Shown: in pieces, positions 15,911 through 38,617 of the stretch
Position numbering within the stretch: the stretch's first letter is position 1
Layout of the letters: every line of letters starts with the position of its first letter
Program-made: the position numbers and the translations under genes
The notes under the pieces: generated by a model
The model's database searches: none
Told to the model about the DNA's origin: nothing
Seen by the model: only the letters and a program-made list of their open reading frames with translations
DNA from: Gammaproteobacteria bacterium
GTDB lineage: Bacteria > Pseudomonadota > Gammaproteobacteria > JABABF01
Length of the DNA: 64,000 bases
Reading direction: 5' to 3'
NCBI GenBank assembly: GCA_965237805.1
Contig: OZ250153.1
Coordinates: 1,536,001-1,600,000, forward strand

Positions 15911-16141
15911 ATGGCAGTGCAGAAAGGGCGCAAGAGCAGTTCAAAGCGCGATATGCGACGCTCCCATGATGGCTTGCGGCCACCGACGCTGGCGGTGGAT
16001 CCGCTCAGCGGTGAGCCCCACCGGCGCCATGCCGTCACCGCAGACGGTTTCTACCGCGGGCGACGACTGTTCGAACCGCTGCCGGAGCGCGCCGCCGATG
16101 GCGATGAAGCCGAGCCACAGGAGCATGCCAGCCCCTCTTGA
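15911..16141 (+). CDS. rpmF: 50S ribosomal protein L32 (Cys-free form, short acidic extension)
   Basis: [20 protein letters not shown]...GEPHRRH...GFYRGR. Confidence 0.95.
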
Positions 16142-17883: not shown

Positions 17884-17912
17884 TTGACTTGAGTGCCGCA
17901 CGGCATTAGTAT
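17884..17912 (+). promoter_or_regulatory. Putative sigma70 promoter for the pilus locus
   Basis: TTGACT-N17-TAGTAT in the intergenic gap after fabG. Confidence 0.55.
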
Positions 17913-18007
17913 TTATCGACCCCAGCTGCGGAATCTTCGTAGATTTTCGTAACAGCGGTGACAGCTACAGTAGCGTTGACAGTCTCGAAAAAGCGGTCAA
18001 AAAGATC

Positions 18008-18892
18008 ATGTCTATAACAGCAAAAAAAGTGGCGATAGAAGCGGTGATATTTGCCACCTTAGAGCGTTGCTGGACTGGCTCTAGAGGCGCTGGCAGTGTG
18101 TTGGCGACGCTTGCTCTCGCAGTCAGTCTCAGCAGCCTCGCCGCCTCGCCAGTAGGGCGTGCGCAGAGCTCCGCGCAGGCTCAAGTGTTCAAGCCGACTT
18201 TGGTGCAGTTCGCACAGGCACAGAGTATCAATCCGGGTGGCTTCACTCCGCCCGGTAGCGCTGCCAGCGGCACGGCGGCCTCCGCTCTGCGTGGCTTCGA
18301 GCAATTGCAGGAATTGCAAGGCATGCTGGAAAAATACAATATTTCCCTGCCGCCCGAATTGCGCTTCTCTCAGGAGTTGCGCACTTTGGCGCAGCAGACC
18401 CAGCTGATTGATGCTCGTATTTCTCTGCTCGAGCGCATTGCCCAACTGACCGGCACTCACCGCGATGTGATGGAGCAGGTGCAGGGTCGGATCAAAAGTC
18501 TGCCACCAGAGGTTTTGGTGCTGATGTATGAGATCGGTGACATCTCCTCAATATTGCGTGCCGGGCGCACGTATTCGCCGGTTCGTAGCGCAACTCTCAA
18601 TGGTGATGCGGCACTAGCTGACGATGATGATGATGTTGCCCAAGAGATTACAGCCGACCAAGCCGGCTTGGCCTTGGTCGACGAATTGGTTAGCGTCCAC
18701 TGGGCTAGCAACTTGAGCGGCGGCGAAGTGGTGCCCGAACAGCCCGTGCGCTTGGTAGCCTCTTTTGGCGGTCAGTACTATGAGATCAAGACTGGCGATC
18801 ATATCGCGGGTTTTGAGATTGGCTTGGCCGACGAGCTCGGTGTTGGTGTTATCGTCTTCCGAGGCGAGGATCGTTTTTCGATGAAGTTCTGA
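18008..18892 (+). CDS. Exported pilus accessory protein, PilP(R64)-like
   Basis: Hydrophobic signal segment, coiled-coil middle, small C-terminal beta domain (YEIKTGDHIAGFEI...GVIV); sits before the ATPase. Family call rests largely on position. Confidence 0.45.
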   Translation: MSITAKKVAIEAVIFATLERCWTGSRGAGSVLATLALAVSLSSLAASPVGRAQSSAQAQVFKPTLVQFAQAQSINPGGFTPPGSAASGTAASALRGFEQLQELQGMLEKYNISLPPELRFSQELRTLAQQTQLIDARISLLERIAQLTGTHRDVMEQVQGRIKSLPPEVLVLMYEIGDISSILRAGRTYSPVRSATLNGDAALADDDDDVAQEITADQAGLALVDELVSVHWASNLSGGEVVPEQPVRLVASFGGQYYEIKTGDHIAGFEIGLADELGVGVIVFRGEDRFSMKF

Positions 18893-19035
18893 AATCGGCC
18901 ATTTGGACTTGGGCTGGTTTTTGCGGGTGAGCGGTAAACGCCAACAGATTTTTGATGCTGGCTGATGGGGGTGGCTGGTGTCTTTGGGGGCATGCGGGGG
19001 GCACCTTGAATCACTGAGATCCGTGGAGCTGCGTC

Positions 19036-20874
19036 ATGGCTACAAAAGAGCAAGAGCAAGAGCAAGAGCAAGAGCAAGAGCAAGAGACAGGTTTCTTGTC
19101 TCGCCTATTCAGCGGTAGGAGCAATGTCGGTGCCGATAACGATGCCGCCGCACGGGCATCGGGTCCTAGCGAAGGCACCACCGAGGTTGATTTTATCATC
19201 GAGCAGGCCGAATGGCTCGGTGTCGCTCCGATCATAGCGCGCAAAGACCTGCCAGACCAGCACCCGATCAGCTCTGCCCACCCGCAGCTCTACGAGTGGG
19301 CCATGGGTCATCCGGAGTTCCTCTGTCTGTTGTCAGATGGCGTGACGCTGGTCAGCTCGAAACCCTCCCATCCGGCGGTGCAAACGGCCAAGAATATGCT
19401 GGCTAGCATGGGGCGCCAGCCCGTGGTGCGTCCAGCGGTGCAGAACATCGTGCGCCATTTGCGCGACATCATGGTGGCCGAGCCAACGCCGGGGGAGGAG
19501 GGCGCCCGGCAGTTGGAGCAAATCTCCGCCGCCGCTACTGACGTGCAGCGTCTCTTTCACGCCATCGTCGAGGCGGCGCTCAATCGCGGTGCATCGGATA
19601 TCCACATGGAGATGCGCGAGCAGCAGACAAACATCAAGTTCCGCATCGACGGTCGCCTGATTTTGTTCGATACCGTGGGGCGCGATGAGCTGCTGGCACT
19701 GGGGAACTACATGTTCAATGCCGAGGCCAAACGTGGCTCTTTGCAGTTTATGCTGGACAAGCCCTTGCACGGTTCGCTCGATTTCCGCATGGGCACGACA
19801 GTGGTGCCGATCCGTCTCAGCACCGCCCCCGATGTGCGCGGTGTCGATATCTTCCTGCGCGTTTGGCGCCCCAACACCAGCGGTATCAAGATTGAGGAAG
19901 CTGGCTATTCGACCTTGCAGATCTCACTGCTGCAAGAGGCCATGTCTCGTCCCTATGGTGTGATAGTGATGTCTGGCCCCACTGGCTCTGGCAAGAGCAC
20001 ATCACTGACAGCATTGTTGGAGACGGTGGATCCGCAACACAAGATCATCTCACTTGAGGAGCCGGTCGAGCGCATGTTGCCCAATGTGACCCATGTCCCG
20101 ATCGCCATCCATGTCCGTGAGAGCGGCTGGGATGTCCTGCGTGCCTCGCTGAACCGGTGGGACACCAATATCAATTTTCTCGGTGAGGTCAAAGATCGCA
20201 ACACGGCCGAGGCGATCAAGGATTTGGCCACTTCGGGTAAGTTATGCGTGACCACCCTGCATGCTTCCAATGTCTTGTCGATCCCCTCCCGACTCGAGGA
20301 TCTTGGTGTCGAGGCCTCAATGATCTACGATCCGAATTTCCTGATTTGTCTGATCAACCAGCGCCTGTTGCCACAGAATTGTACGCACTGCCGTGTGCCG
20401 TTGGAAAAGCAGGCCGCACGGCTGGATCGCTACACGCTGAATCGCTACAAGAAATTATTCAAGGGCCATGAGAGCGAGGTCTACTTTATGGGACCCGGTT
20501 GCAATCATTGTGATGGTACGGGTATTGCCGGGCGACGCTTGGCGGCCGAGGTGGTCATGCTCGACGATGATGGCCGCACTTTCATTCGCGAACGCGACCA
20601 AATGGGCTGGCGCGCATACCTGTTGGAGCGCGGTTTTCAACCGATCAGCACACATGTGCTGAGATATGTCCTCAGCGGTGATGCCGATCCCGTTGTCGCC
20701 GAACGCGCCGTCGGCTTGCTTGATTCCTCTCACCAAGTACAGTTTGATTACCGATTGCGCCAAGATGCCTTGGATGCCGCTCTCCGGGAGAGTGACACGA
20801 CGGCCCATCGCGATACTACGCTTGGTGCTGGCAAGGATACGGGTGCCGCCACCCGACAGCAGGCGGCCTCTTAG
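19036..20874 (+). CDS. Type IV pilus/T2SS assembly ATPase (PilQ/GspE family)
   Basis: ASDIH, FRIDG, Walker A GPTGSGKS, LEEPVE, GEVKD, TTLHAS, Zn motif CTHC...CNHC. Confidence 0.93.
   Translation: MATKEQEQEQEQEQEQETGFLSRLFSGRSNVGADNDAAARASGPSEGTTEVDFIIEQAEWLGVAPIIARKDLPDQHPISSAHPQLYEWAMGHPEFLCLLSDGVTLVSSKPSHPAVQTAKNMLASMGRQPVVRPAVQNIVRHLRDIMVAEPTPGEEGARQLEQISAAATDVQRLFHAIVEAALNRGASDIHMEMREQQTNIKFRIDGRLILFDTVGRDELLALGNYMFNAEAKRGSLQFMLDKPLHGSLDFRMGTTVVPIRLSTAPDVRGVDIFLRVWRPNTSGIKIEEAGYSTLQISLLQEAMSRPYGVIVMSGPTGSGKSTSLTALLETVDPQHKIISLEEPVERMLPNVTHVPIAIHVRESGWDVLRASLNRWDTNINFLGEVKDRNTAEAIKDLATSGKLCVTTLHASNVLSIPSRLEDLGVEASMIYDPNFLICLINQRLLPQNCTHCRVPLEKQAARLDRYTLNRYKKLFKGHESEVYFMGPGCNHCDGTGIAGRRLAAEVVMLDDDGRTFIRERDQMGWRAYLLERGFQPISTHVLRYVLSGDADPVVAERAVGLLDSSHQVQFDYRLRQDALDAALRESDTTAHRDTTLGAGKDTGAATRQQAAS
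19045..19086 (+). repeat. Hexanucleotide microsatellite (CAAGAG)6 plus one variant unit, encoding EQEQEQ
   Basis: Directly visible at the 5' end of the ATPase gene. Confidence 0.95.
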
Positions 20875-20956
20875 CATGCGCTGCGTCGCGTGTTGTGAGC
20901 AGCGCGGCGCGGCGCGGCACCGCCCAGACCCAGCCCAGCTTCGCTGAGGCCCGACC

Positions 20957-21994
20957 ATGAGCCTCTACGACAGTTTTAACGACGGCCTGTTGCGCCTGCA
21001 GTTTGGGCGCAAGGCACAGGCCGACTATGTGCGCGCTTTCTTTTCCCTACTCGACGAAGGGGTGCCCCTGCGCGATGCATTGATCAATATCCGTGCCATT
21101 GGCAATCCGGTGGAGCAGATGGTTGCCAAGCGCATGTACCAAGCTTTACGCGCTGGCCAGCCGGTGGCGCGGGGCATGCAAGGCCTGTTCGATCCGGTGG
21201 TTGTGGGGTCGCTGGCGGCTGGTGAGCAGACCCCAAATTTCATCCCCAATGGCTTGCGCATCGCCGATGTGATGGAGAGTGAGCTCGGTGTGTTCGGTGA
21301 GGTGGTAGGCAAGCTGTTGCCACCGATACTCTTTATGGCTCTGGTGTTGGCGATGTTCACCCAGATGCGGTTGCGTTTCTATCCGCTGATCCTGCATATC
21401 AAGCCGATAGAGCAGTGGACTTTGCCGGGTCGGATCGTCTACCACACTGGCGACTTCCTCGCCTCCCACTGGCTGGTAGTCATCATTGGTATCGTTGTGG
21501 GCATAGCGTTGTTCGGCTCTTTTATCACGCGCTATACGGGGGTCGGTCGCCAGTTGCTCGATCGGATGCCGCTCTTCGCGCTCTACCGGGAAAATACCGC
21601 GGCCAAGAGCCTCGAGTCGATGGCGCTGGTGTTGTCTTCCGGCATGGAGATGCGCAATACCTTGCGCCTGATGCACGACAGCTCGCCGCCGCTGGCACGG
21701 CTCTACCTGCGCAAGATGATGGGGCGTCTGCAAGAGGGTGGCACACTGGCCGATGTCATTGATGTCGGCTTTCTCGGCAGAGAAGAGATCTCCTTGTTGA
21801 AGTTGCTGGCCCAGCACCGGGGCTTCATGGATGCTATGCAGCGCGTCGCGCGCAAGAGTGGCGAAGCCGTGCGACGGCGGGTGCGGCTCACCGTGCGGCC
21901 GCTTCAAGTCATCCTGTTTGGCGTGGTCGGCTTGGGCTACGGTCTGATGATCTTTGCCGTCTATACCAATACCCAGAACTTGGCCTCGTTCTGA
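20957..21994 (+). CDS. Pilus inner-membrane platform protein (PilR/GspF family)
   Basis: Two T2SSF-like halves (LLDEGVPLRDAL; LSSGMEMRNTL), three TM segments; follows the ATPase. Confidence 0.88.
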   Translation: MSLYDSFNDGLLRLQFGRKAQADYVRAFFSLLDEGVPLRDALINIRAIGNPVEQMVAKRMYQALRAGQPVARGMQGLFDPVVVGSLAAGEQTPNFIPNGLRIADVMESELGVFGEVVGKLLPPILFMALVLAMFTQMRLRFYPLILHIKPIEQWTLPGRIVYHTGDFLASHWLVVIIGIVVGIALFGSFITRYTGVGRQLLDRMPLFALYRENTAAKSLESMALVLSSGMEMRNTLRLMHDSSPPLARLYLRKMMGRLQEGGTLADVIDVGFLGREEISLLKLLAQHRGFMDAMQRVARKSGEAVRRRVRLTVRPLQVILFGVVGLGYGLMIFAVYTNTQNLASF

Positions 21995-22019
21995 ATTTGG
22001 CATCGAGGGGTGGCAGGGC

Positions 22020-22049
22020 TTGACGCGCTGGCCAAGTGGATGTTACAAT
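22020..22049 (+). promoter_or_regulatory. Putative sigma70 promoter for the major pilin
   Basis: TTGACG-N18-TACAAT with extended -10 TG. Confidence 0.55.
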
Positions 22050-22145
22050 TGCCGACAGAAGTTGATTTCTGGCACACACGATCACGATCAGACCACCTCA
22101 AGATCCTTAAATCTTAAATACTGTAAGCCAACGGGGGCAGCACAT

Positions 22146-22787
22146 ATGACAACCAGATTCAATAACAGCTTGCAAGAAGCACGGTATTCGCGCGGTGCCA
22201 CCCTGATTGAACTCTCGGTGGTGGTGGTGATCATCGCATTGATCGTGGCGGGTGCCTTGGTCTCTTTCAGACAGGTGCAGCGCTCCCAGACCATTACCGA
22301 GGCTGCGAGCATCAATTCGCAGATTGTCTCGGCGGTCGCACGCATCTCCGGTGCCGTCGGCCCCTCTGGTTCTGGATTGATCGCTTGCGTGACTAATTGT
22401 GAGATGCAGGGAACTGCGGCGGTGATTATCGCCCAGACGCTGGGCAACACCGGTTTGGAAGAAAAAGCAAACAACTGTTGTGCTCTCATCTCAGGCAGCA
22501 ATCCCGGTGCCCAAACTGGTTTCACGAATGCCAATTCTTGGGGCGGAAATATCGTCCTCTATGCATACAATGCACGCTCTATCATCGTCCGCCATACCGC
22601 TGTGCCAGACTATGCGCTCACATCGCTGACCAACGCTTTGGAATTGGGGGCGCAGTCCATTGTGACCAGCGACGCTCAGCTGACATCGCTGACTAGTAGC
22701 AGCGCGCTTAACTACACGGGGTCTAATTACGCTAGCGGCCTATATAATGGCACAGCTGGTCATGTCGACGGGCTCTATCAGTTCTGA
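22146..22787 (+). CDS. Probable major pilin, type IVb (PilS-like)
   Basis: 17-aa leader ending YSRG|ATLIELSVVVVII (Glu5), ~196-aa mature chain, PilS-like NSWGGNI and VPDYA motifs, own promoter. Confidence 0.85.
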   Translation: MTTRFNNSLQEARYSRGATLIELSVVVVIIALIVAGALVSFRQVQRSQTITEAASINSQIVSAVARISGAVGPSGSGLIACVTNCEMQGTAAVIIAQTLGNTGLEEKANNCCALISGSNPGAQTGFTNANSWGGNIVLYAYNARSIIVRHTAVPDYALTSLTNALELGAQSIVTSDAQLTSLTSSSALNYTGSNYASGLYNGTAGHVDGLYQF

Positions 22788-22937
22788 AGCAGGCCTTGCC
22801 AGCTCGCGGTCGGTGCCGCACTGAGCCACCACTTTAGCGCTGTCTGTAGTCTGTATCAGCCTATCGGCTTGGCTTGAGGGCGCACTTGTTGCCCAGCGGC
22901 ATAGAGCGGGCTGTTTTGAGCCTGAGTTGGGGTTCCT

Positions 22938-23777
22938 GTGATGGCTGAGGCGACCCAGTGGCCGGGGGCGTTCTCGCTGTGGTTGCTCGAATGGCAGCTG
23001 TTGCTCCAAGCGCAGCCTTGGCTGGTGCTGGTGCTGGCCGCGTTGGCTGGTGCCTGTGCTGGTAGTTTTCTCAATATGATGGTGTACCGGCTACCCCTGA
23101 TGGCAGAGCGCAGCTTGGCTTTGGCACGCGGTGTGGCACCACAGCAGCTGCCTGGTGGCGAGGCCCCCTACAACTTGGCCGTGCCCCGTTCGCACTGTCC
23201 GCATTGTCGGCAGCCGATTCCACTGTGGTACAACATCCCGCTGCTGAGCTATCTGTGGTTGCGCGGGCGTTGTGCAGCCTGTGGTGTAGCCATCCCGCCG
23301 CGCTATCTGTGGCTGGAATTGTCGACGGTGGTACTCTTTGTGCTCGCCGCGCAACGCACCAGCGGCGCACTGATGCCGCTGCTCGCCCTGTGGCTGGCGC
23401 TGGGTACATGGTTAGCAGCGCTGTGCCTCGCGCTGGAGCGGGACTACTTGCCGACAGCCATCGCTTGGTTGCCGTTGTGGCTTGGCCTGTTGCTGGTGGC
23501 GGGTGATCCCGCCCCCGCCGCCCCCGCACTGTGGGCAGCGGCGGTGGCGGCGGGGCTGGCGGCGTTGTGGCTACGGTGGCTACAACGCCACCCAGCCTCG
23601 CCAGAGCTGCTGGCGTTGTCAGCCGCCGCTGGGGCTTGGGGCGCTTGGCTCGGGCTCGCCTGTCTCGTCGTGCTGTGGGCTGTGGCCGCCCTGTGGGCGC
23701 GCTGGCGAGGAGCCCCCGCCACCGCCTCAGTGCCGTTGTTGGCACTGGCTGGTATTGCTGCGGCGCTGCTCGCCTGA
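22938..23777 (+). CDS. pilD: PilD-like prepilin peptidase/methylase homologue with degenerate peptidase domain
   Basis: GSFLNMMVYRLP, PRSHCPHC, NIPLLSYLWLRGRCAAC, GAWG; catalytic Asp motifs not found. Confidence 0.85.
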   Translation: MMAEATQWPGAFSLWLLEWQLLLQAQPWLVLVLAALAGACAGSFLNMMVYRLPLMAERSLALARGVAPQQLPGGEAPYNLAVPRSHCPHCRQPIPLWYNIPLLSYLWLRGRCAACGVAIPPRYLWLELSTVVLFVLAAQRTSGALMPLLALWLALGTWLAALCLALERDYLPTAIAWLPLWLGLLLVAGDPAPAAPALWAAAVAAGLAALWLRWLQRHPASPELLALSAAAGAWGAWLGLACLVVLWAVAALWARWRGAPATASVPLLALAGIAAALLA

Positions 23778-23947
23778 ATCGATACCGCACGGCCAGCTCG
23801 GCCGCAATGCTTTCGGTCGCCAGCATGCATCGGTTATACTCCAGATCGCATTGGACAGTTTTTTCCCTGTGCCCATTGCGGTGGCAAGTGGCGGCGGCAA
23901 GTGGTCGCGAAAACCGCCATCCAGAGCGAGTTGCTGTGTCCCGAACC

Positions 23948-24682
23948 GTGCCGAAAAAACCACCACCCCATTCCCGCCACCCGGCGGCATTCGCGCCGCG
24001 CCACCCTGCGCTTGCTTTCACCCTGCTTGAAATGTCGATCGCGTTGACGGTGATCGTCAGCGCGATCCTCTATTCTGCGCTCTACTTGCGCGACGCATCG
24101 CGTCAATATGCGTTGGGGGGGCGAGCTTTTGCCACCATGCAGGAGATCGCACTCAGCGCGGACACTTTTTACTGGCAGAACTGCAGTGCTATCCAGCAGG
24201 CATTCGCTGCCAGCGGTGCACTCGTGCCCAGGGTGGTGGTGGCCAGCAATAATGCGCTGCTCAGCGCCCATCCCACCCTGCGCATGACGCTTCGTGGCAA
24301 CCAAAACTCGGTGAATCCGCTGAGCGGCACCACTTATGATGTCTATTATGAGCGCCACCGCAGGGATGGCGTGGTGGACAGCTATGGCATCACCATTCCG
24401 CCAACAGATGTGGTCTACCGTGTCGTGCAGTTCCCGGCACCGCCCGACCGCTCGGTGGCCGATGCCGTGGCGGACTATCAGCGCTATATGGATACCGCAC
24501 AACTGGTGGTGACAGCGGACAGTGACCGCACCGTTCTCTACCTCGCCCAAGTGCAGCGCAGTCCCATCGCCGACGATGTCTCCCTGCAGGCTTTTACCGC
24601 GGGGGCGCGCAGAATTGCCGCCAGCAGCTCGGCCTCGGTGTCGATCAACCCAGCCTGTGCCGCCACTGCCCCGGTGCGGTAG
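23948..24682 (+). CDS. Minor pilin-like protein (start uncertain: GTG 23948 or ATG 23807)
   Basis: Class III signal PALA|FTLLEMSIALTVIVSAIL; two Cys in the mature region. Confidence 0.75.
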   Translation: MPKKPPPHSRHPAAFAPRHPALAFTLLEMSIALTVIVSAILYSALYLRDASRQYALGGRAFATMQEIALSADTFYWQNCSAIQQAFAASGALVPRVVVASNNALLSAHPTLRMTLRGNQNSVNPLSGTTYDVYYERHRRDGVVDSYGITIPPTDVVYRVVQFPAPPDRSVADAVADYQRYMDTAQLVVTADSDRTVLYLAQVQRSPIADDVSLQAFTAGARRIAASSSASVSINPACAATAPVR

Positions 24683-24736
24683 CTGCTGGCACAACCCACA
24701 TGTCGCAGGCAATTTTCCATATCTTGGCCCGCGTGT

Positions 24737-24745
24737 TGTTATACT
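24737..24745 (+). promoter_or_regulatory. Putative extended -10 element upstream of the giant pilin genes
   Basis: TGtTATACT in the intergenic gap. Confidence 0.4.
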
Positions 24746-24797
24746 GTGGTTTAATGCACGAAGTGGATTTTAGCGATACGACGAGGCTTGGCACGTG

Positions 24798-29448: not shown

Positions 29449-31535
29449 GACAGCGCCGAGCTCAGGCCATGTCCCCGAGCTGCGACACGCAGCCCCGTCG
29501 TCGCGCCTCGGCAGCGTGCGGGGCGACTTTGGTCGAGCTATCCCTGGTGGTGACGGTGTTGGCGCTTTTCTTTGCCCTGGATCTGCAGTCGCGCCGAGAG
29601 GATCGGCTGTTCTATCTCGCCGACTTGGCGGCCGCCGAGCTGAATGAGATCGTCTCGGCCTCGCTGTCCTATAGGACCAACACCGGCAAGTGGCCACTGG
29701 ATCACTGTGCTGAAGACTATCTGTTGCCCCCGTCGCCGCCCTCTCCCCTGAGTAGCAACTGCGACGGCGATAGCGGAGGCTTAATCGACGAAAACGACCT
29801 CTCCGGTGTGCGGCGTCTCTTCAGAGAGGGCTATATTCCGCTGAGCGATTGGCGCACCGAGCTGTCATCGACCGATGCCCCCATGGGCGGTAGCCGAGCC
29901 CTGTCGCTCAACTCCGTGCTCGGTGGTCGCCTGTTATTGCAGCCAGTGCCGACGACGGGGACGACTTCTTGGACCTTGCTGCCCACCGGTATGTCATATG
30001 CAGCTCTCGCCACCAGTATCGACAGTCCCGCCGAGCTCGATGCCCTCGTCTCCCGCCAAGGTTTGCGCCTGTGGATGGCACTGCCTGTGCCCTTTGCCTG
30101 CATGGCGCGCTATATCTCCGGCTTGGTGCCGTCTTCGCGCGTCCTCGTCGACGGCACGCCCATCGTCGACGGCATGCCGCTCGCCGGCATGCGTACCATC
30201 GCTGGCGTGCAGACCGCCTCGTGTCCCCAAGCTGGCAATGTCAGCGTTGAAATCCTGCGTCGCAACGCGCCCTATACCCGCTCGGAGGATGCCTTGGTGG
30301 CCGGGGGTGTGGATACCGATGTCGAGCTGGGGACGGTACTGCGGGTTGAACGCTTGATTATCGGCGACAATGTCAGCCTTGATGCCCCCGGTAACCGCAT
30401 CTTTTTCGAGGCGGAGAACACTTATAGCCCCTACTATGGGGTATTGCGTTTGGCTCCCTACGGCCTCAGCTCTACTGAGGCCACGACCGTGGAGACTGCC
30501 ATACAATTCGCACGTTCGTCCGTGGATACAACAGCGCCATCGGGCGGTTTGGCGGTGTTGGCTGCGCGCCCTGGAGGCGGCCCCCAAGCGACAGAATGTT
30601 GCGTTGAGCACTACCGCCTGGTCCCCGGCGACAGCACATCCCCCGCCTCCGGCATAGACTACTTCCCCTTCGGTGTGGCACCCTATAGTCCGCTGGATCG
30701 CAATTGGCAGAACAATGTGCTGATCATGCGTCCCGGTGCGCGTGCCGATCTGGCCACCAATACCGAGCTCGAGCTGCAAGATGCCAACACCCGTGAGATT
30801 GCACTCAGCTTGGAGATGCTGTCTAAATATCGCCAATACCCCAGCTCGATCGACGCGGGACAGCGTGCTTTCGGGCAGCCGCAGGGGCTGACTTACCACG
30901 GTGCCAGATCGGTCTCCGGGCGGGCTTCTGGTGTCGCTTTTGCTGTTCCAAGAGACTCGGTACAGACTGACATAGAGCTGGTGATCGGCGGTCTACCTGT
31001 GGCGAGTGGTGCCAATCAGGGTCTGCGTCACCGCAGCGCCTTCGACTTGTACAACAATCCGGCGGTACTCATGGGGCCGAGCACGCTATTGCGATACGAC
31101 CATTCCTATGTGGCCAACCTTTTCCTTGGCGACACCGACCTCATTCTCGGCTACGGACCGCGTTATTGGCGGTGGGATCCCTTGGGTTATCGAGATGCCG
31201 CGACGCCCTACCAGACCGCCTTGGACACACCACCGGATACGATTTGGTTGGATGAGGATTATGGGTTGATCAATTTCCAGCATAGTTTTACCAATATATA
31301 TTTTCAACGGCCCACCCGTCTGCTGGGCGTGGATTTCATCGACACAGGATACGCTTCGCTTCACCTCAATGATTCGATCCCACTGAAGATCGGGCGGGAA
31401 AACAGCGGTAGTAGCGCCACCCACACGCTGGCGAGTGATGCCATCATTGAGGGACGTAATATCACCGATCTTTCGTGCCTGCAGTGCACCGACAGCACTC
31501 GATGTCCCGCCGATGCCTCGGCCACTGCCTGTTGA
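29445..31535 (+). CDS. Giant pilin-like adhesin 3 (PilV-like)
   Basis: AACG|ATLVELSLVVTVLALF; GKWPLDHC; C-terminal CLQC...CP; ATGA overlap with the previous gene. Confidence 0.78.
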   Translation: MRQRRAQAMSPSCDTQPRRRASAACGATLVELSLVVTVLALFFALDLQSRREDRLFYLADLAAAELNEIVSASLSYRTNTGKWPLDHCAEDYLLPPSPPSPLSSNCDGDSGGLIDENDLSGVRRLFREGYIPLSDWRTELSSTDAPMGGSRALSLNSVLGGRLLLQPVPTTGTTSWTLLPTGMSYAALATSIDSPAELDALVSRQGLRLWMALPVPFACMARYISGLVPSSRVLVDGTPIVDGMPLAGMRTIAGVQTASCPQAGNVSVEILRRNAPYTRSEDALVAGGVDTDVELGTVLRVERLIIGDNVSLDAPGNRIFFEAENTYSPYYGVLRLAPYGLSSTEATTVETAIQFARSSVDTTAPSGGLAVLAARPGGGPQATECCVEHYRLVPGDSTSPASGIDYFPFGVAPYSPLDRNWQNNVLIMRPGARADLATNTELELQDANTREIALSLEMLSKYRQYPSSIDAGQRAFGQPQGLTYHGARSVSGRASGVAFAVPRDSVQTDIELVIGGLPVASGANQGLRHRSAFDLYNNPAVLMGPSTLLRYDHSYVANLFLGDTDLILGYGPRYWRWDPLGYRDAATPYQTALDTPPDTIWLDEDYGLINFQHSFTNIYFQRPTRLLGVDFIDTGYASLHLNDSIPLKIGRENSGSSATHTLASDAIIEGRNITDLSCLQCTDSTRCPADASATAC

Positions 31536-31555
31536 GTGGCTTGCACCGAGCTGCC

Positions 31556-31584
31556 TTGCACTGGCTCTGTTCTTGTGATATTCT
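31556..31584 (+). promoter_or_regulatory. Putative sigma70 promoter for the lipoprotein/secretin genes
   Basis: TTGCAC-N17-TATTCT with extended -10 TG. Confidence 0.45.
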
Positions 31585-31799
31585 AGAGGAATACACGTTT
31601 TAGTTTGTTTGCAATATCGTCTAACAGGCCATTGTTCGCTGAGAATTTTAGCGCCGTTGCCGAGCAAACGGACAGGGTGGCGGCTGTTCAGATCGATTCG
31701 CAGCTGCTCAGCGTGGCCTTGGTTTCAAAACGCAGGTGGCTATTTGGAGGTGTTGGGGTGGTAGGGCTTGGGAGACAGCGGATCATGCAGGGGGAGCCT

Positions 31800-33278
31800 A
31801 TGCATAGCCGGTGGTGGAGATTGACAGCCGCACCGCGCCCGTTGTGGTCGGGTTCGGGCGTGTTGCTCGCCACGGCCACGGTCGTTCTGATGCTCGGGGG
31901 CTGTTCCTCGCTCGGCTCTGGGGTCGGATTGTGGAATCGTGCCACAACGCCCAGCACTGAGACTGATGCCGTCGCGCTGAACAGCTTGGCATCGGTCGCC
32001 GAGCACCCTGTTGCAGCAGCGGGTGGTGCCGCCGTCATCGCGTCGATCAAAGGCTCTCCCGCCAGCTCGCATGACAACACTCCAGAGACCGCCAATGTCG
32101 TGCCGATTCGGCGCTTGCATTGCCTTGAGGTCAAGGCCACCGATCTGTCTGCCAGCTTCCAGCGGCTCGCCACCCATTATGGCCTGCGCCTCGAGTGGTT
32201 ACCGGAGGATGATCGCCGTATATTACAGGGCTACAAGCTGCGCTTTGATTGCTTTGAGGAGGGTTTGCGCCAGTTGTTATTACTCAATCCCCTGTTGGTG
32301 GCCGATATTTACTACCCCAACCGTGTGTTGGTGGTGCGCGATGCCGACCGGCATACCACGGTCGATGCCACGCCATTGCGTTGCGAGACTTCCCCGATAC
32401 GCTTGGCGCGCCCCTTGCCAGTCTGTGCGGGTGAGCGTCCACAGGCGGCCTTGCCGCGCCGGGCACGCCCGATAGTAGCGAAACCGGATGCCGCAAGCGT
32501 TGCCCCTGCGATAGATAACCGTCGCTCCAGAGCGCAGAGTCGTCGGCAGGCGCGCGCCGAGCGTGCCAAAGCCCGCCAGGAGGCCAAAGTCCAAGAGGCC
32601 AAAGCCCGCCAGGAGGCCAAAGCCCAAGAGGCCAAAGCCCGCCAGGAGGCCAAAGCCCGCAAGGAGGCCAGCACCCAAGAGGCCAGCCCCCAAGAGGCTG
32701 GCATCCAAGAGGAACGCAGCAGACAGCGCGCTGAGCGTGACAGAGCTCGTGAGGAACGCAGCCAACGCCGCGCCGAGCGCGTTCGCGCCCGCGAGGAACA
32801 GCGCAGCCAACGCCGTACCGAAAGTGCTGGACGCGCCGCCGCTGCCGAGGCCACACGACGCCTTGGCGAGACCGCCCGCCGCGCCGCTGCTGCCGAGGCC
32901 ACACGTAGCGCCATTCCGGCTCCTGCGACGCGTTCCGACCGCGTTGAACGTTCCGAGCGCGTTGAACGCTCCGAGCGTGTCGACCGGGAACTCCGAGCCG
33001 CTCGGGCTGTTAGCAAGCGCAATCAGTGGACGGTGCGCGTCGCTGTCTACGACCGGCCAACCGGTGCGCAGCGTATGCTGGGGCGCCTGCGCGCCGACAA
33101 TTTCATGGCTTATGTGGCATCTGTCAAGAGCGGTGCACGGACTTTCAGTGGGCTCTATGTCGGTAAGGCCCTGAGCAAACACCGCGCCGAGCGCTTGGCG
33201 AAGGAGTTGGATCGGCGCTATGGCTTGGCCACACTGGTTGTCATGCGCACCAGCCCACCAGCCGAGGCGGCTCGATAG
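31800..33278 (+). CDS. Lipoprotein with TcpQ/PilL-like domain, charged helical linker and C-terminal SPOR domain
   Basis: Lipobox LGGC; LSASFQRLATHYGLRLEW...FEEGLRQLL...YYPNRVLVV resembles TcpQ; WTVRVAVY...LYVG...A..LAKEL resembles SPOR. Start uncertain. Confidence 0.65.
   Translation: MHSRWWRLTAAPRPLWSGSGVLLATATVVLMLGGCSSLGSGVGLWNRATTPSTETDAVALNSLASVAEHPVAAAGGAAVIASIKGSPASSHDNTPETANVVPIRRLHCLEVKATDLSASFQRLATHYGLRLEWLPEDDRRILQGYKLRFDCFEEGLRQLLLLNPLLVADIYYPNRVLVVRDADRHTTVDATPLRCETSPIRLARPLPVCAGERPQAALPRRARPIVAKPDAASVAPAIDNRRSRAQSRRQARAERAKARQEAKVQEAKARQEAKAQEAKARQEAKARKEASTQEASPQEAGIQEERSRQRAERDRAREERSQRRAERVRAREEQRSQRRTESAGRAAAAEATRRLGETARRAAAAEATRSAIPAPATRSDRVERSERVERSERVDRELRAARAVSKRNQWTVRVAVYDRPTGAQRMLGRLRADNFMAYVASVKSGARTFSGLYVGKALSKHRAERLAKELDRRYGLATLVVMRTSPPAEAAR
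32565..32990 (+). repeat. In-frame short tandem repeats (AKARQE/AKxQE, EERSQRRAE, RAAAAEATR, ERVERS)
   Basis: Visible DNA repeats such as GCCAAAGCCCGCCAGGAG x3. Confidence 0.85.
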
Positions 33279-33280
33279 TC

Positions 33281-33787
33281 ATGGCTACGGGCAGGCCTGC
33301 ACTCGCCAGCGCTCAGCGGCCATTATTCATCGCTGTACTCTCAGCGTTGGTGTTGTCGCTTGCGGCCTGTGCCGGAGTGCCCAGTAGTGAGCGAGCTGCG
33401 ACTGGCCAATCCACTGTTGATGCCATGACGCCGTCTACGGGCACAACAAAACGCCGGATGCGGCGGGGCGACAAAGAGTTACTTGCCCGCAAGCATGCCG
33501 TTTCCCTGCGTCGAGCTGAGGTTTCCTGTGAGCGGGCAGGTTCCGAGGCGGAGCTCAACCAGTGGACCCTACGTATCGAGCTCTACAGCGATGCGCAGGC
33601 CGCACGCGAGCAGTATGAAGTCCTCAGTCGGGTGGGTTTCCCAGTGTACCTGCAGGAAGTTTCTGCAACGGATGGCCAAGTAGGGCTTTATACCGGGCGC
33701 GAGGTGACTTGTTGGCAGGCTCTGGAGGCCAAGCGCCTCTTGGACCCCAGCTATTCATTGGATACGACGATTGTCCGTGTTCGCTGA
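33281..33787 (+). CDS. Small SPOR-domain lipoprotein
   Basis: Lipobox LAAC; NQWTLRIELY...GLYTG...LD..Y.L.T.IV parallels the SPOR domain of the preceding gene. Confidence 0.65.
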   Translation: MATGRPALASAQRPLFIAVLSALVLSLAACAGVPSSERAATGQSTVDAMTPSTGTTKRRMRRGDKELLARKHAVSLRRAEVSCERAGSEAELNQWTLRIELYSDAQAAREQYEVLSRVGFPVYLQEVSATDGQVGLYTGREVTCWQALEAKRLLDPSYSLDTTIVRVR

Positions 33788-33805
33788 TCTTCGGTACGAC
33801 ACAGA

Positions 33806-35527
33806 GTGAAAGCGATGGCGATATTAGCACAGACAAAGGCACAGGTGGCGGTTTTGGCGGGCCGTTGTGGCGCGATCCCAAGCCAAAGGATCCCAAGCCA
33901 AAGATTGTGCAACACACTATTATTGGCGGTATCCTTGGCTTTGTTGTCTGGCTGTGGCCTGATTGCCGACTTGAGTGGCAGCGCTCTCTCCAAGCAGGTA
34001 GATGGACACCGCGATCATATCAAAGGTCAGCTGGAAAAACTGGTTCAATCGCAGACGCCGAAACGTCCCTTGGTGCGCTTTCACGATTCCCCCTATACTG
34101 CTTTTGATTGGGTATCACGCGATGACATGGCGTGGTTGCAACAGCGGGTGCTGGTCAATGCGCGGCAGCTGCCGCTGAATTTGCTGATGGATCAAGTCAT
34201 GCGGCAGCTCGATGCCCCGCCCTTGGTGCGTTACGGCGATGTGGCCGAACAGGTGGACGCGGAGCGCCTGCGGCGGGAGCTCCGCTTTGGCGGAAAACTG
34301 TCGGCGGAGTTGGCCAACGTACGCTTGGAGTCGCTGGCGGCGAGCAAGACTTGGGTCGACACGTGGCGCCCGGTGACGCTGCGTTTCTCAGGCACGATGC
34401 TGGAGCTGCTGGAGCGCCTAGCATTGCTGAGCGACTATGCCTACACCACCAATGCTGATGATAACAGCCTGCATTGGCAGGCTTATTTGACCCGTTCTTT
34501 CCGCTTGGTTCACCCACAGGGCGACCAAGAATACGACATCGGCTTTTCTTCTGGTGGTGGTGGCGGTTCGGCGTCGGGTGGGGGTGTGACCACCGGTGGT
34601 AGCGGTGGGATCAGTGGCTCTTTCCGTTCGGATAACCAATATGTCGGCTTCGAAGAGAACGGCGGCGAATTCTGGGATGATCTGGAAACGGCGGTCGAGG
34701 CCATCCTCGACGGCGATGGTGACATAGATCGCTATATCAGTCGGTCAACTATCATCGTCACTGCTCCGGCCTCCAAAGTGCTGGCCGTGGGGCGTTTCGT
34801 GCGCGAGCTGAATGAAGATCTACAGCGCAAGATGCTGATCGAGTTCCGGGTCATCGAAGTCGCATTGAATGACTCGCATACTTTCGGCATCGATTGGTCC
34901 GTGATTCAATCCCAGCTGACCGGGCAGGATCTTGAAGTCATACTTCGTGGCAATTCGCTGACCATCGGTGGCGGTCAGCCGCCGGAGAATGTTGGCACAC
35001 ACGATCACTATGTCAACACGGTGCTGACCGCCCTGCGCACTCAAGGTGAGGTCAGTGTGGAGACGGCACCGCGGGCGTTGATCTATAACCATCAGGCGGT
35101 GGAAGTGCGTCGCACCGAGACCCAGTCCTACATTTCCCAAGTCTCTCGCTCTGTCGATAGCTTTGGCTCCAATGTCAGCGTGACTCCTGGTACCATCGAC
35201 TCTGGTGTCAGCTTCTATGCGCTGGCGAATATCCTCGACAGTCGGCGCGTCGTGCTACAGGTGTCCGGCTCCTTGCGCGATGCAATTATCGGCGAGGCAG
35301 TCGATATTGGCGGTGGATCGCAGGTCAACCTGCCTTCACTGACCGAGAATGTGTTCAATCAGCGCGCCATTTTGAACTCTGGGCAGTCCCTTTTGCTGAG
35401 CGGCCTGCGACGCCGCCGTGGTAATTATGCCAAGACCACGCGCTCCGATCTCGACTACAACAAGAACCAGAATTGGTCTCAGGTGGAGACCATCGTCATG
35501 ATCACGCCAGTTGTGGTGAGTGACTGA
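33806..35527 (+). CDS. Lipoprotein secretin (PilN/BfpB type)
   Basis: Lipobox LSGC, Gly/Ser-rich N3 loop, FWDDLE, RVIEVAL...GIDW, SGQSLLLSG, terminal IVMITPVVV. Confidence 0.9.
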   Translation: MKAMAILAQTKAQVAVLAGRCGAIPSQRIPSQRLCNTLLLAVSLALLSGCGLIADLSGSALSKQVDGHRDHIKGQLEKLVQSQTPKRPLVRFHDSPYTAFDWVSRDDMAWLQQRVLVNARQLPLNLLMDQVMRQLDAPPLVRYGDVAEQVDAERLRRELRFGGKLSAELANVRLESLAASKTWVDTWRPVTLRFSGTMLELLERLALLSDYAYTTNADDNSLHWQAYLTRSFRLVHPQGDQEYDIGFSSGGGGGSASGGGVTTGGSGGISGSFRSDNQYVGFEENGGEFWDDLETAVEAILDGDGDIDRYISRSTIIVTAPASKVLAVGRFVRELNEDLQRKMLIEFRVIEVALNDSHTFGIDWSVIQSQLTGQDLEVILRGNSLTIGGGQPPENVGTHDHYVNTVLTALRTQGEVSVETAPRALIYNHQAVEVRRTETQSYISQVSRSVDSFGSNVSVTPGTIDSGVSFYALANILDSRRVVLQVSGSLRDAIIGEAVDIGGGSQVNLPSLTENVFNQRAILNSGQSLLLSGLRRRRGNYAKTTRSDLDYNKNQNWSQVETIVMITPVVVSD

Positions 35528-35665
35528 GAGCTGGGGCGATCGATCGGGCTGTTGCATGCGCAGGCTTGGCCGCTGTTGTCTTGACATCGGCAGGACAACG
35601 GGGACGGATCACTGAGCTGGGTCTGAGCGTGGGATGCTGGGGTAGCGCAGGGGAGGTGTAGACTG

Positions 35666-37738
35666 ATGGCAGATGAGATCGATCCCCGCACAGCGGGGTC
35701 TGTGGGCGAGCCTGAGAATGTCATGGCGGGCTCTAAAGATGGTGCCGACGCTGCTGCTCGGGTTGAGGCAGCGCTGGGCTTGGACGAATCCGCCACCGAT
35801 ACGGACGGCGCAGCATCGGAACTGGAACCGAGCAAGGGTGGCCGCCGCCGATTCCGACGCTCTATCACCACGGGTCTGTTGCCGGACAAGATGCTGTCCG
35901 GTGATATCCTGACAGCGCCAGCCAGTCTTAGCGATTTTGCCAGTGCCCCGGTGCGGGAGACCATCCCCTACACCGCAGATCCGAAGACAGCAGTGCGCCA
36001 GCGGGCGCGCGAGATGGCCAAGCTCTACGGTGAGGAAGAGGATGGCCCCTATGTGAACTTTGTCGTCCGTCCGGGGCTTATTTCGGCGGTCTTCTATCCG
36101 CGTGAAGCGCATTTGCTGGGCGAGAGCGTGTGCGACATGATCGGCGATCGCGGTGGTAAGAACTATATCTGGTGTGAACGTGCGCTCTCCGATTGTCATA
36201 TTGTGGTGGTCATGGATGGCGAGGTGCGCGCTGATTTGGCGCAAGCACAGCAAAATTCTGGTCAAGAAGTGCGCCAGTGGCTCTTTACCATGCGCCGTCA
36301 CCTGAGCCAATCAACGACGCCGAGCGGTGCCGATAGCGCGGCAGATGCCCCCGCAGCACCGCTACAGACACCCAAATTATTTCTGCACAATATTACGCTG
36401 GCCGAGCTCGGCATCAGCGGCAGTACGGCCGCTCAGGTCGAGACCCTCGACCAAGACATCTTGGAATGGTGCTGGGATAATACCTCGCACCTCTATCCAC
36501 TGTTGCCGGTTCAGCGTGCCCTGCGCTTGGTATTTAGCCGCGAGAGCCGTGTGTTGCGCTCTGTGGTGTTCAATATCGCTGGCGTTATTTTGTTGCTCAG
36601 CGGTGCGCTGTATGCCTACACGACTATCTACCAATTCTTCCAGCAGAGGGAGATTGCGCAACAGCTGGCTGCCGCGCAACAGAGCCGCGAGCTGTTGGAT
36701 GACGAGTTGGTGCAAGCAACAGATGAGGGATCGGTAACGGCTGAGACCGTCGCTGATTCCGTGGTCGACCGGCAGGCTGAGTTGGTCAACCAACCGCTGG
36801 CAGACTTCACTGCCAACCAACGGGATGCCGGGGTGCTTTTGGAGTGGGTATTACAGAGCATTCTGGATCTCGGCAGCTATGTCAATTCGGATCCCAGCGG
36901 CGGCGGACACAGTTTTTACCGTTTGATGCAGAATGCGACTTGGTCCGATCTTGATCAACAGCTGGCCGTGCGCATCGTGGGTAGCGTCGGCCGCGTCACT
37001 CGCCTGTATCAAGTGGTGTCTGAAGAGCCGGATCTCCCTTTCAGAGTGCGCTCTTATTCCACCCGTCGAGGAGGCGGGAAATTGACCTTGCAGCACAGTC
37101 CGGTGCGCGCTGTGCCGCGCTTGAACGAACTGTGGTTGTCATCGCAAAGTGCGTTGGCCAATGTTGACGACGACTCTGCCAGCGCTGAGGTGGAGGATTA
37201 TGAGGCATTGCTCTTGCTGGACGATGCCGATAGCGGCCTTGTGACAGCGGATGATCGCTGGGAGCTGGGTGACGATCACTGGTCGGCAGCGACGGTCAAG
37301 CAGGGCGCACAAGCCCTGCCCGAGTTGCCGCAGCGTGAGCAATGGTTGTTGCGCGAGTGGGTGCTGTTGCTGGACTCGATGAACGGTAAAAACATCAGGT
37401 TGTACGAGGAGCAACGTTTGCATTACCGACTCTACGAAGTGTGGGCTGACCTGCCAGCGGTTAGCTTGGAGTCATGGCACTGGTTCGGGCAGTTGCTCAA
37501 AGGGCGCGATGTGCTGTTGCGTTATGTTGATATGGCGTTTGACCCCAATGACCCGCAACGTATGCAGGCGCAGGTACACCTCGGCATTACCTTGCCTTTG
37601 CGCAGTGGCGAAGTCCTGCAGCAGGTGGATCCCCGCATCCCCATCGCGCCCTTGCCCAAACAGGAGCTCGCCGATTGGGATCGCAACGTCGACGATGCAG
37701 ATCAGCGTACCCGCGGTCGTCGGCGTACGCTTCGTTAG
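35666..37738 (+). CDS. Bitopic membrane pilus accessory protein, PilO(R64)-like
   Basis: ~300-aa cytoplasmic domain, one central TM (IAGVILLLSGALYAY), periplasmic domain; follows the secretin. Family call rests on topology and position. Confidence 0.45.
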   Translation: MADEIDPRTAGSVGEPENVMAGSKDGADAAARVEAALGLDESATDTDGAASELEPSKGGRRRFRRSITTGLLPDKMLSGDILTAPASLSDFASAPVRETIPYTADPKTAVRQRAREMAKLYGEEEDGPYVNFVVRPGLISAVFYPREAHLLGESVCDMIGDRGGKNYIWCERALSDCHIVVVMDGEVRADLAQAQQNSGQEVRQWLFTMRRHLSQSTTPSGADSAADAPAAPLQTPKLFLHNITLAELGISGSTAAQVETLDQDILEWCWDNTSHLYPLLPVQRALRLVFSRESRVLRSVVFNIAGVILLLSGALYAYTTIYQFFQQREIAQQLAAAQQSRELLDDELVQATDEGSVTAETVADSVVDRQAELVNQPLADFTANQRDAGVLLEWVLQSILDLGSYVNSDPSGGGHSFYRLMQNATWSDLDQQLAVRIVGSVGRVTRLYQVVSEEPDLPFRVRSYSTRRGGGKLTLQHSPVRAVPRLNELWLSSQSALANVDDDSASAEVEDYEALLLLDDADSGLVTADDRWELGDDHWSAATVKQGAQALPELPQREQWLLREWVLLLDSMNGKNIRLYEEQRLHYRLYEVWADLPAVSLESWHWFGQLLKGRDVLLRYVDMAFDPNDPQRMQAQVHLGITLPLRSGEVLQQVDPRIPIAPLPKQELADWDRNVDDADQRTRGRRRTLR

Positions 37739-38612: not shown

Positions 38613-38617
38613 CGTCT

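Follow-up and report, generated by a model that had tools for sequence, protein, structure and literature searches.

A chromosomal gene cluster for a probable type IVb-like pilus in a genome-reduced gammaproteobacterium

We analysed a stretch of 64,000 nucleotides (the window; G000:C1:1536001-1600000, contig OZ250153.1) from an uncultured gammaproteobacterium whose genome, G000, is one contig of 1.73 Mb. The window contains a cluster of 13 open reading frames (ORFs), g1 to g13, which all lie on the + strand between positions 18008 and 37738 (~20 kb) with small gaps or overlaps between neighbours. Judging from the protein families encoded, we consider it likely that the cluster is a chromosomal, non-conjugative type IVb (T4b)-like pilus machine of a divergent lineage. 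The predicted proteins mark it as a distinct T4b sub-lineage with three departures: an A24 prepilin-peptidase homologue without the catalytic aspartates, three giant minor-pilin paralogues, and SPOR-domain lipoproteins in place of a lytic transglycosylase.

An initial annotation had described 13 co-oriented genes with an assembly ATPase, a platform protein and a lipoprotein secretin, and our family matches and the lipobox of g12 agree with this. It had also counted five prepilin-motif proteins, and a motif scan for class-III signal sequences finds the same number in the cluster (g4, g6, g7, g8 and g9). As it had stated, genes for a retraction ATPase, a transglycosylase or mobility functions are absent: family scans of the 13 ORFs against Pfam and NCBIfam gave no retraction ATPase, integrase, recombinase, transglycosylase or conjugation family, and g1, g6, g7, g9, g11 and g13 had no family match. 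Both SPOR domains that it had noted were recovered, that of g10 by Pfam and that of g11 through its similarity to the g10 domain. Two further identifications stood in part. The 'PilD homologue' g5 is a homologue but lacks both catalytic Asp motifs, a loss that the annotation missed, and the 'TcpQ-like lipoprotein' g10 has a lipobox and resembles a Longus protein in profile comparison, but its TcpQ-like domain matches no Pfam or NCBIfam family.

The predicted secretin and its accessory proteins

The secretin gene g12 (33806..35527, + strand) matches the Pfam Secretin family (1.2e-6) and encodes a lipobox, LSGC. The best NCBIfam model was TIGR02520, type IVB PilN (127.7 bits, 4.7e-37, below the cut-off of 287.65), and the score against MshL was well below the PilN score (82.1 bits, 3.4e-23; cut-off 250.2). 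BfpB was the sole match in the PDB (9.3e-20). By these matches, g12 is predicted to be an outer-membrane lipoprotein secretin of the PilN/BfpB (T4b) type.

The lipoprotein g10 (31800..33278, + strand; longest ORF from 31605) has the lipobox LGGC, with the Cys at ORF residue 100, and consists of a TcpQ-like domain, a repetitive charged linker of ~190 residues and a C-terminal SPOR domain (PF05036, residues 473-537; 23.3 bits, cut-off 21, 8.2e-5). In hhalign, the g10 pair aligned with the TcpQ-domain protein of Longus over 90 columns (Prob 69.5, E 4.2e-5) and more weakly with proteins that precede the secretin in related clusters (L015_260, E 0.003; own3_453, E 0.017). R64 PilL was not matched by hhalign, and the TcpQ-like domain gave no match in Pfam (to E ≤ 10) or NCBIfam. 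Nested tandem repeats of 15, 18, 33 and 42 bp at 32565-32977 encode the charged linker. Its length varies within the genus, because the orthologue in the same-genus species G001 has 350 aa and is too short to contain the whole linker.

The small lipoprotein g11 (33281..33787, + strand; 168 aa; lipobox LAAC) takes the R64 pilM position between the pilL-like gene and the secretin. It has no Pfam match of its own, even at E ≤ 10, and its residues 93-165 align with the SPOR domain of g10 at 31% identity over 74 residues (E 9e-7). Our literature search found nothing relevant on SPOR domains in connection with T4b pili, although such an account may still exist in print.

Directly after the secretin, g13 (35666..37738, + strand) encodes a bitopic inner-membrane protein of 690 aa with a single transmembrane segment at ~299-317. 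An exhaustive HMMER search of 1.84 billion representatives returned 2 proteins, one with 61% identity and one at E 2.3e-5. One central transmembrane segment is found in all three g13 orthologues and likewise in R64 PilO, Stutzerimonas PilO2, BfpC and L015_435, with none in own3_407 at threshold. Comparison of g13 with R64 PilO, BfpC, L015_435 and own3_407 by hhalign was negative, as were Pfam and NCBIfam; among its protein language-model (Atlas) neighbours, 28 of 30 were PAP_PilO clusters (score 0.91). At the other end of the cluster and directly upstream of the ATPase, g1 (18008..18892, + strand; 294 aa) has an N-terminal hydrophobic anchor (residues 28-46) and an orthologue in G001 with 51% identity over residues 106-294. 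It matched no Pfam (E ≤ 10) or NCBIfam family, and in hhalign neither PilP and BfpU nor any of 17 further accessory proteins aligned with it. We infer from position only that g1 is the PilP/BfpU counterpart, and from position, topology and the language-model lead that g13 is PilO2/BfpC-like.

The assembly ATPase and the platform protein

The assembly ATPase g2 (19036..20874, + strand; 612 aa) belongs to the GspE/PilB superfamily (Pfam T2SSE, 6e-60) and has a tetracysteine motif, C449/C452/C489/C492, which is invariant in the aligned sequences. Against NCBIfam it scored 163.8 for TIGR02538 (PilB; cut-off 675.65) and 181.9 for TIGR02533 (GspE; cut-off 630.25). At 19046-19086, a perfect (AAGAGC) x 6.8 repeat gives g2 an N-terminal (EQ)n run; the G001 orthologue starts differently, and the repeat is possibly a length-variable tract. 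The adjoining platform gene g3 (20957..21994, + strand; 345 aa) matches Pfam T2SSF in two stretches (1.9e-16) and has 78% identity in G001.

A word-based search with g2 returned 87 clusters at E ≤ 6.5e-99 (37-74% identity), followed by a gap to ordinary GspE/PilB proteins. These close clusters are mostly metagenome proteins, two of them labelled 'Gammaproteobacteria bacterium'. We built an ATPase tree of 76 rows (quick IQ-TREE, LG+G4, SH-like approximate likelihood-ratio test (SH-aLRT), rooted on two retraction ATPases) with five PilB proteins above the TIGR02538 cut-off, EtpE, R64 PilQ, BfpD, LngH, the Stutzerimonas plasmid PilQ and two ATPases that adjoin MshL-type secretins, one of them above the cut-off, as references. 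The references for type II secretion systems (T2SS), the type IVa pilus (T4aP) and the mannose-sensitive haemagglutinin (MSH) pilus formed one clade (SH-aLRT 98), and g2 was placed on the other side (92). On the T4b side, R64 PilQ, BfpD, LngH and the plasmid PilQ formed one clade with 10 database proteins (97). Its sister group (93) contained g2 and comprised the window clade, a second clade from 16 genomes of the class and the ATPase of a second G000 cluster. In this tree g2 thus falls in a discrete clade that appears as sister to the classical T4b ATPases. The placement agrees with the basal position of T4b pili in a PilB tree, as given in one survey (PMC6668835).

Major and minor pilins

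T4b major pilins have leaders of ~15-30 residues, a residue other than Phe at +1 and mature lengths of ~180-200 residues. The major prepilin g4 (22146..22787, + strand; Pfam N_methyl; RG/ATLIE, the slash marking the cleavage site) fits this description, with a 17-residue leader from the ATG at 22146 (longest ORF from 21954), Gly at -1, Ala at +1, Glu at +5 and a mature length of 196 residues. A sigma-70-like site at 22020-22049 (TTGACG, 18 bases, TACAAT, with TG), ~97 bases before the g4 ATG, is the best of the region and suggests an internal pilin promoter, though such sites are no more numerous than expected from shuffling. Where G000 has one major-pilin gene, G001 carries a tandem pair (L117, G001:C88, 6450-8347), the products being 49% and 36% identical to g4 and having leaders of 16 and 25 residues.

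Four minor prepilins follow, one small and three giant. The small one, g6 (23936..24682, + strand; LA/FTLLE, with Ala at -1), has 221 mature residues; its start codon is uncertain (longest ORF from 23531), and the G001 orthologue reads RA/TTLIE at 46% identity. The giants are g7 (24795..27449, + strand; RG/ITLID, with Asp at +5; leader of 32-49 residues, depending on the start codon; 835 mature residues; G001 orthologue with 39% identity), g8 (27436..29448, + strand; RG/ATLFE; leader of 14; 656 mature residues) and g9 (29433..31535, + strand; CG/ATLVE; leader of 18-30 by start codon; 670 mature residues). They are paralogues with common WPL..C, DCNGD and C-terminal CxxC..CP motifs in an alignment, and the frames overlap, those of g7 and g8 by 14 bases and those of g8 and g9 by 16.

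A weak N-terminal GspG match was the sole family signal of g8, and a word search with g8 gave 4 matches, all from the same genus and including g8 itself. In an AlphaFold2 model made from 8 sequences, the predicted local distance difference test (pLDDT) was 54-83 at residues ~15-265 and <40 beyond. VIA-align compared the N-terminal model best with CofA of colonization factor antigen III (CFA/III; Z 7.4, 162 residues aligned), then with TcpA of the toxin-coregulated pilus (TCP; Z 6.8, 154) and then with other pilins. In Foldseek, the ten top-ranked rows were all CofA, CofB, TcpA or TcpB, with no match at E ≤ 0.001. We read the N-terminal ~265 residues of the g8 model as a type IV pilin fold with a T4b-like head; the C-terminal ~400 residues are outside the usable model. 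The Atlas neighbours of g8, which are leads only, include Shufflon_N (0.90) and TcpB/CofB_C (0.87) clusters.

A related cluster in genome G126 (L015 12882-18648) also has two copies of the major pilin, together with three large minor pilins that are paralogues and have 460, 444 and 432 residues. Because this cluster has three paralogues of ~440 residues, the minor-pilin triplication would be older than the genus of the window and the increase in size specific to it.

A prepilin-peptidase homologue without the catalytic aspartates

In A24 prepilin peptidases, two aspartates (in ID..LPD and GxGD) are catalytic, and the N-terminal domain of PilD is a methyltransferase. The A24 homologue g5 (22938..23777, + strand) matches A24_N_bact (PF06750) alone, at 2.7e-28 (98.3 bits, cut-off 23), and has two invariant CxxC pairs (C87 and C90, C112 and C115). 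A six-frame search of G000 with PF01478 found one gene, at 579833-580168, and did not detect g5. Among the 120 g5 homologues listed, the 3 same-genus rows (g5 itself, P0142 with 78% and P0143 with 70% identity) match PF06750 only, and the other 117 have both domains.

In an alignment of 16 sequences, I-D...L-P-D and G-x-G-D are present in 12 of 12 canonical proteins and in 0 of 4 sequences of the window group, which represent three lineages, since P0143 hardly differs from the G001 locus. In all four, Ala or Val replaces the first Asp, LPD reads LPT, GxGD is lost through a deletion of 5 residues, and the C-terminus is ~20 residues shorter than the canonical one. Identity of g5 to the 12 aligned canonical peptidases is 31-39%. 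Like canonical PilD proteins (PF06750 plus PF01478), g5 thus has the N-terminal domain with its four Cys and a hydrophobic, polytopic C-terminal half, but it differs from them in having neither the first Asp, the GxGD loop nor a PF01478 match, and in its shorter C-terminus.

The g5 gene looks to be under purifying selection: dN/dS (NG86, G000 against G001) was ~0.18 for the N-terminal and ~0.21 for the C-terminal half, compared with 0.14 for fabD and 0.13 for the ATPase, all rough values with dS saturated at 1.1-1.4 in these comparisons. One canonical Peptidase_A24 is encoded elsewhere in G000, and G001 has exactly one, on a contig other than that of the cluster. Because the Asp motifs are lost, dN/dS is low and a single canonical PilD is present elsewhere, we regard g5 as probably a retained pseudo-peptidase, not an active peptidase, with prepilin cleavage in trans. 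We found no relevant account of an inactive prepilin peptidase in our literature search, though one may still exist in print. Near the pilus cluster of G126, and convergent to it, lies a gene for a canonical peptidase with both Asp motifs (L015 19675-20598).

Gene order and comparison with characterized systems

The usual accessory proteins of T4b systems include a TcpQ-like lipoprotein and a bitopic protein that follows the secretin. The order in the window is g1, ATPase, platform, pilin, A24 homologue, minor pilins, g10, g11, secretin and g13. In R64 it is pilL-M-N-O-P-Q-R-S-T-U-V; in the bundle-forming pilus (BFP) bfpG, B (secretin), C, U, D (ATPase), E, F, P, H and I-J-K; and in the Stutzerimonas plasmid PilN, PilO2, PilP, ATPase, platform, pilin, a second ATPase and PilV. 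The order in the window is a cyclic permutation of these, the R64/BFP/plasmid circle being cut between the 'O' and 'P' positions, so that genes correspond one-to-one by position. The clusters of G126 (L015) and G221 have the canonical order (TcpQ-like protein, secretin, ~435-residue protein, (small protein), ATPase, platform, pilins).

With the R64/IncI1 thin pilus, the cluster shares the succession of a PilL-like lipoprotein, a small protein, a lipoprotein secretin of PilN type and a bitopic protein, and also a small anchored protein before the ATPase, a platform, a major pilin of ~200 residues, an A24 homologue and large minor pilin(s). Unlike R64, it is chromosomal and has no conjugation genes, PilT lytic transglycosylase or shufflon, four minor pilins (three of 656-835 residues) stand against one PilV, and the proteins in the PilL and PilM positions carry SPOR domains. 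R64 PilU has the Asp pair and lacks the N-terminal domain, whereas g5 shows the reverse, and g2 has 29% identity to R64 PilQ and is outside the PilQ clade.

BFP has the only solved relative of the secretin, BfpB, and the same order of secretin, bitopic protein (BfpC), BfpU, ATPase, platform, peptidase and minor pilins; BfpG and g10 are both lipoproteins encoded upstream of the secretin. In contrast to the window cluster, BFP includes a retraction ATPase (BfpF), a transglycosylase (BfpH) and an active peptidase (BfpP), its three minor pilins have ~160-180 residues, unlike the giants of the window, and BfpD is only a weak match to g2 (2.7e-27).

Like the window cluster, TCP, CFA/III and Longus have no retraction ATPase. 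They have a TcpQ-domain protein, that of Longus being the one that g10 resembles in hhalign. Each has one large minor pilin (TcpB, CofB or LngB) composed of a pilin domain and C-terminal extensions, as in the g8 type, and CofB of CFA/III forms a trimeric tip. The window differs from these systems in its three giant paralogues plus one small minor pilin, the C-terminal regions having no detectable similarity to CofB or TcpB, in its SPOR domains, in the lack of a transglycosylase (Longus has one) and in the order of the accessory genes.

Distribution and conservation

The full 13-gene set is present in the same order, and with the same fabD-fabG flank, in G001, with identities from 39% (g7) to 78% (platform) and an identical insertion site between fabG and a short-chain dehydrogenase/reductase (SDR) gene. 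Because order and flanks are kept in this second species, the set is more than a chance assembly of genes. All 13 genes are intact in both species, and dN/dS was 0.10-0.33 for the 10 of 13 for which it could be computed, with the roughness noted for g5. A third lineage of the genus has relatives of g5 and g8 (P0142 and P0138) on a 20.6-kb contig.

Among 41 relatives, an ATPase with >34% identity to g2 was found in G001 only. Of 400 genomes of the class, 25 match the ATPase profile of the clade at E ≤ 1e-90, and on trees only G056, G126 and G221 join the window clade. The clade is patchy, since the locus in G056 and G412 consists of the ATPase-platform-pilin trio only and is present in 2 of 16 genomes of their genus. 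A Walker A-based scan of genome contigs found three clade members (L014-L016) among at least 80 loci; in a metagenome scan with a degenerate pattern for NRWDxNIN, a motif of the clade, none of at least 113 stretches encodes a relative of the 13 proteins (E ≤ 1e-5). In the searches made, the full gene set was found only in the genus of the window.

Assignment to the type IVb class

The T4b class includes R64, TCP, BFP, Longus and Cof, and TFFscan has pilA, pilB, pilC, pilQ and pilD as mandatory genes, of which pilD may be a loner, according to the same survey (PMC6668835). Family matches identify equivalents of pilA, pilB, pilC and pilQ in the cluster, and the canonical pilD is elsewhere in the genome. 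The T4b-type character proposed in the initial annotation is supported by the PilN/BfpB-type secretin, the long leaders, the non-Phe residues at +1 and the position of the ATPase on the T4b side of the tree, though outside the R64/BFP/Longus clade. The evidence does not point to the MSH class, with an MshL score well below the cut-off and g2 apart from the two MshL-adjacent ATPases, nor to T4aP or T2SS, with the PilB and GspE equivalogs below their cut-offs and g2 outside the clade of the five PilB proteins and EtpE.

Several observations weigh against this assignment or against parts of it. Every NCBIfam equivalog is under its cut-off for g2, and likewise for the secretin g12. Moreover, g2 is not nested in the clade of characterized T4b ATPases, its group (93) holding none of the four T4b references, in a tree that is a quick LG+G4 reconstruction with SH-aLRT as its only support measure, long reference branches and an outgroup root. 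Because the ATPase is outside the characterized T4b clade and all equivalogs are below cut-off, formal T4b membership appears borderline. The g8 fold matches all have Z < 8, in the range that the tool calls common. For g1 and g13 there is no detectable similarity to PilP/BfpU or PilO/BfpC, their roles resting on position and topology, and the AlphaFold2 model of g13 (4 sequences; pLDDT 41.9) is unusable. As to g5, acidic residues are kept beside both lost positions (E-R/H-D, and an E one residue before the GxGD Asp), which leaves room for catalytic residues that migrated to a neighbouring Glu or Asp. Some T4b prepilins need their own peptidase, as peptidase specificity in Vibrio illustrates, and cleavage by the housekeeping PilD is an assumption.

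The claim of an 'undescribed system' was too strong: the cluster is a T4b pilus variant whose parts list maps onto R64 and BFP. The parts list called unusual is ordinary insofar as its genes correspond to those of R64 and BFP by position; the SPOR domains, the three giant minor-pilin paralogues and the missing catalytic aspartates of g5 are unusual. The initial annotation had named a distinct clade with conserved synteny as support for its claim. In the tree, the ATPase clade is separate from that of R64, BFP and Longus, and synteny of the full set was found within its own genus only. The domesticated status of the cluster, and its function in adhesion or secretion, we infer as the initial annotation did.

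Alternative explanations

A T4b-derived secretion machine, in which a short pseudopilus or pilus exports one or more soluble proteins and adhesion is not the main function, is in our judgement unlikely. TCP exports TcpF and CFA/III exports CofJ, the four minor pilins are reminiscent of the T2SS with its four pseudopilins, and there is no retraction ATPase. Secretion of partner proteins by T4b systems through the minor pilin is reported in another study (PMC6048534). However, no candidate gene for a secreted substrate lies in or beside the cluster (fabD-fabG, SDR, P450, polytopic protein), the 196-residue major pilin is of the pilus type, and another ATPase of the genome, encoded next to a GspD-like secretin, groups with EtpE. 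It is improbable that the system is decaying or inactive, with the loss of the peptidase as the start of pseudogenisation in a shrinking genome. The missing Asp residues of g5 and the small genome (1.73 Mb) would suit such a process, but the 13 ORFs are intact in both species despite only 39-78% protein identity, dN/dS is low throughout and ~0.2 for both halves of g5, g5 and g8 persist in the third lineage, and there is a canonical PilD to act in trans.

We give very little credence to a role in DNA uptake (competence) or as another non-adhesive type IV filament. Type IV filaments are versatile and the function here is deduced from the family only; yet family scans of the 13 ORFs and their neighbours show no adjoining competence genes, ligand binding is suggested by the giant variable pilins of the tip, and characterized T4b pili serve adhesion, aggregation or mating. 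Hardly any weight attaches to a reading as a mating-pair-stabilising thin pilus (R64/PAPI-1 type) that belongs to an integrated conjugative element, even though the closest match in gene order is the R64 thin-pilus operon, the best-covering plasmid matches to the ATPase are PilQ genes of conjugative plasmids, and the cluster has a lower GC content (58-62%) than most flanking bins (63-67%). The 13 genes and 6 scanned neighbours include no relaxase, coupling protein, type IV secretion system gene, integrase or shufflon recombinase, the 64-kb window has no tRNA, the insertion site is the same in two species, and g2 is outside the plasmid PilQ clade.

Proposed mechanism and implications

In a chromosomal T4b-like pilus with a presumed role in adhesion or colonisation, g2 and g3 would polymerise mature g4 from the inner membrane, and the minor pilins would prime assembly and end at the tip. 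There, the ~400-600 extra residues of g7-g9 could supply a surface for binding, perhaps a tip of three parts such as the single large minor pilin of CFA/III forms. The fibre would exit through g12, with g13 and g1 linking the inner-membrane motor to the secretin. The SPOR domains of g10 and g11 may tie the secretin to peptidoglycan, in the place that a lytic transglycosylase takes in R64, BFP and Longus, and might also position the machine at division sites. Because g5 lacks both catalytic aspartates, the one canonical PilD, whose gene lies elsewhere in the genome, would most likely cleave the leaders, with g5 surviving as a methyltransferase-only or scaffold protein. As the genome has no PilT-type ATPase (none of 4 matches in a PilT-family search of G000 was above cut-off), any retraction would be motor-independent.

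A bolder form of this proposal, which we regard as doubtful, is that in a T4b-derived lineage g5 would be a pseudo-protease kept as an N-methyltransferase or prepilin chaperone while the housekeeping PilD cleaves; that g7-g9 would form a heterotrimeric, fast-evolving tip adhesin with domains of ~400-600 residues; and that the SPOR lipoproteins would insert or position the secretin at septal peptidoglycan, as a T4b counterpart of the AMIN domains of T4aP PilQ.

To our knowledge, nearly all that is known of type IVb pili comes from enteric pathogens and IncI plasmids, and the cluster would show the family in an uncultured, genome-reduced gammaproteobacterium. An Asp-less g5 that is apparently under purifying selection could offer a natural way to separate the peptidase from the methyltransferase role of PilD. 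Three giant minor-pilin paralogues are relevant to the initiation of assembly and the selection of ligands by tip complexes, and SPOR domains in place of a transglycosylase suggest an alternative means by which a secretin machine could traverse the cell wall or be positioned in it. These features do not overturn current models.

Genomic setting

The cluster lies directly 3' of fabD-fabG (16138-17873) in a yceD...fab neighbourhood, at the same site in G000 and G001, and occupies the position where acpP-fabF usually come next. In G002 and G003, which belong to the same family, no ORF of the window was matched downstream of fabG. Downstream, the SDR gene (37788-38681, - strand) flanks the cluster, and the further flanking genes encode a cytochrome P450 and a polytopic membrane protein of 967 residues (40088-42991). 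The latter has 51% identity in G001 and no Pfam match, and was not found in G002 or G003; we considered it as a pilus substrate and ruled this out, the protein being of the polytopic membrane type.

The genome encodes four assembly-type T2SSE ATPases and four secretins in 1.73 Mb, the ATPase that groups with the T2SS reference EtpE adjoining the GspD-like secretin. A second compact T4b-like cluster lies at C1:1354700-1364140 on the - strand and has the canonical T4b order, with genes for a protein of 453 aa, a lipoprotein secretin of 486 aa, two proteins of 407 and 305 aa, an ATPase of 501 aa, a platform protein of 344 aa and then small pilins. The ATPases of this cluster and of G002 and G003 form the closest paralogous clade to g2 and have the Walker A sequence GPTNSGKS, with Asn for Gly.

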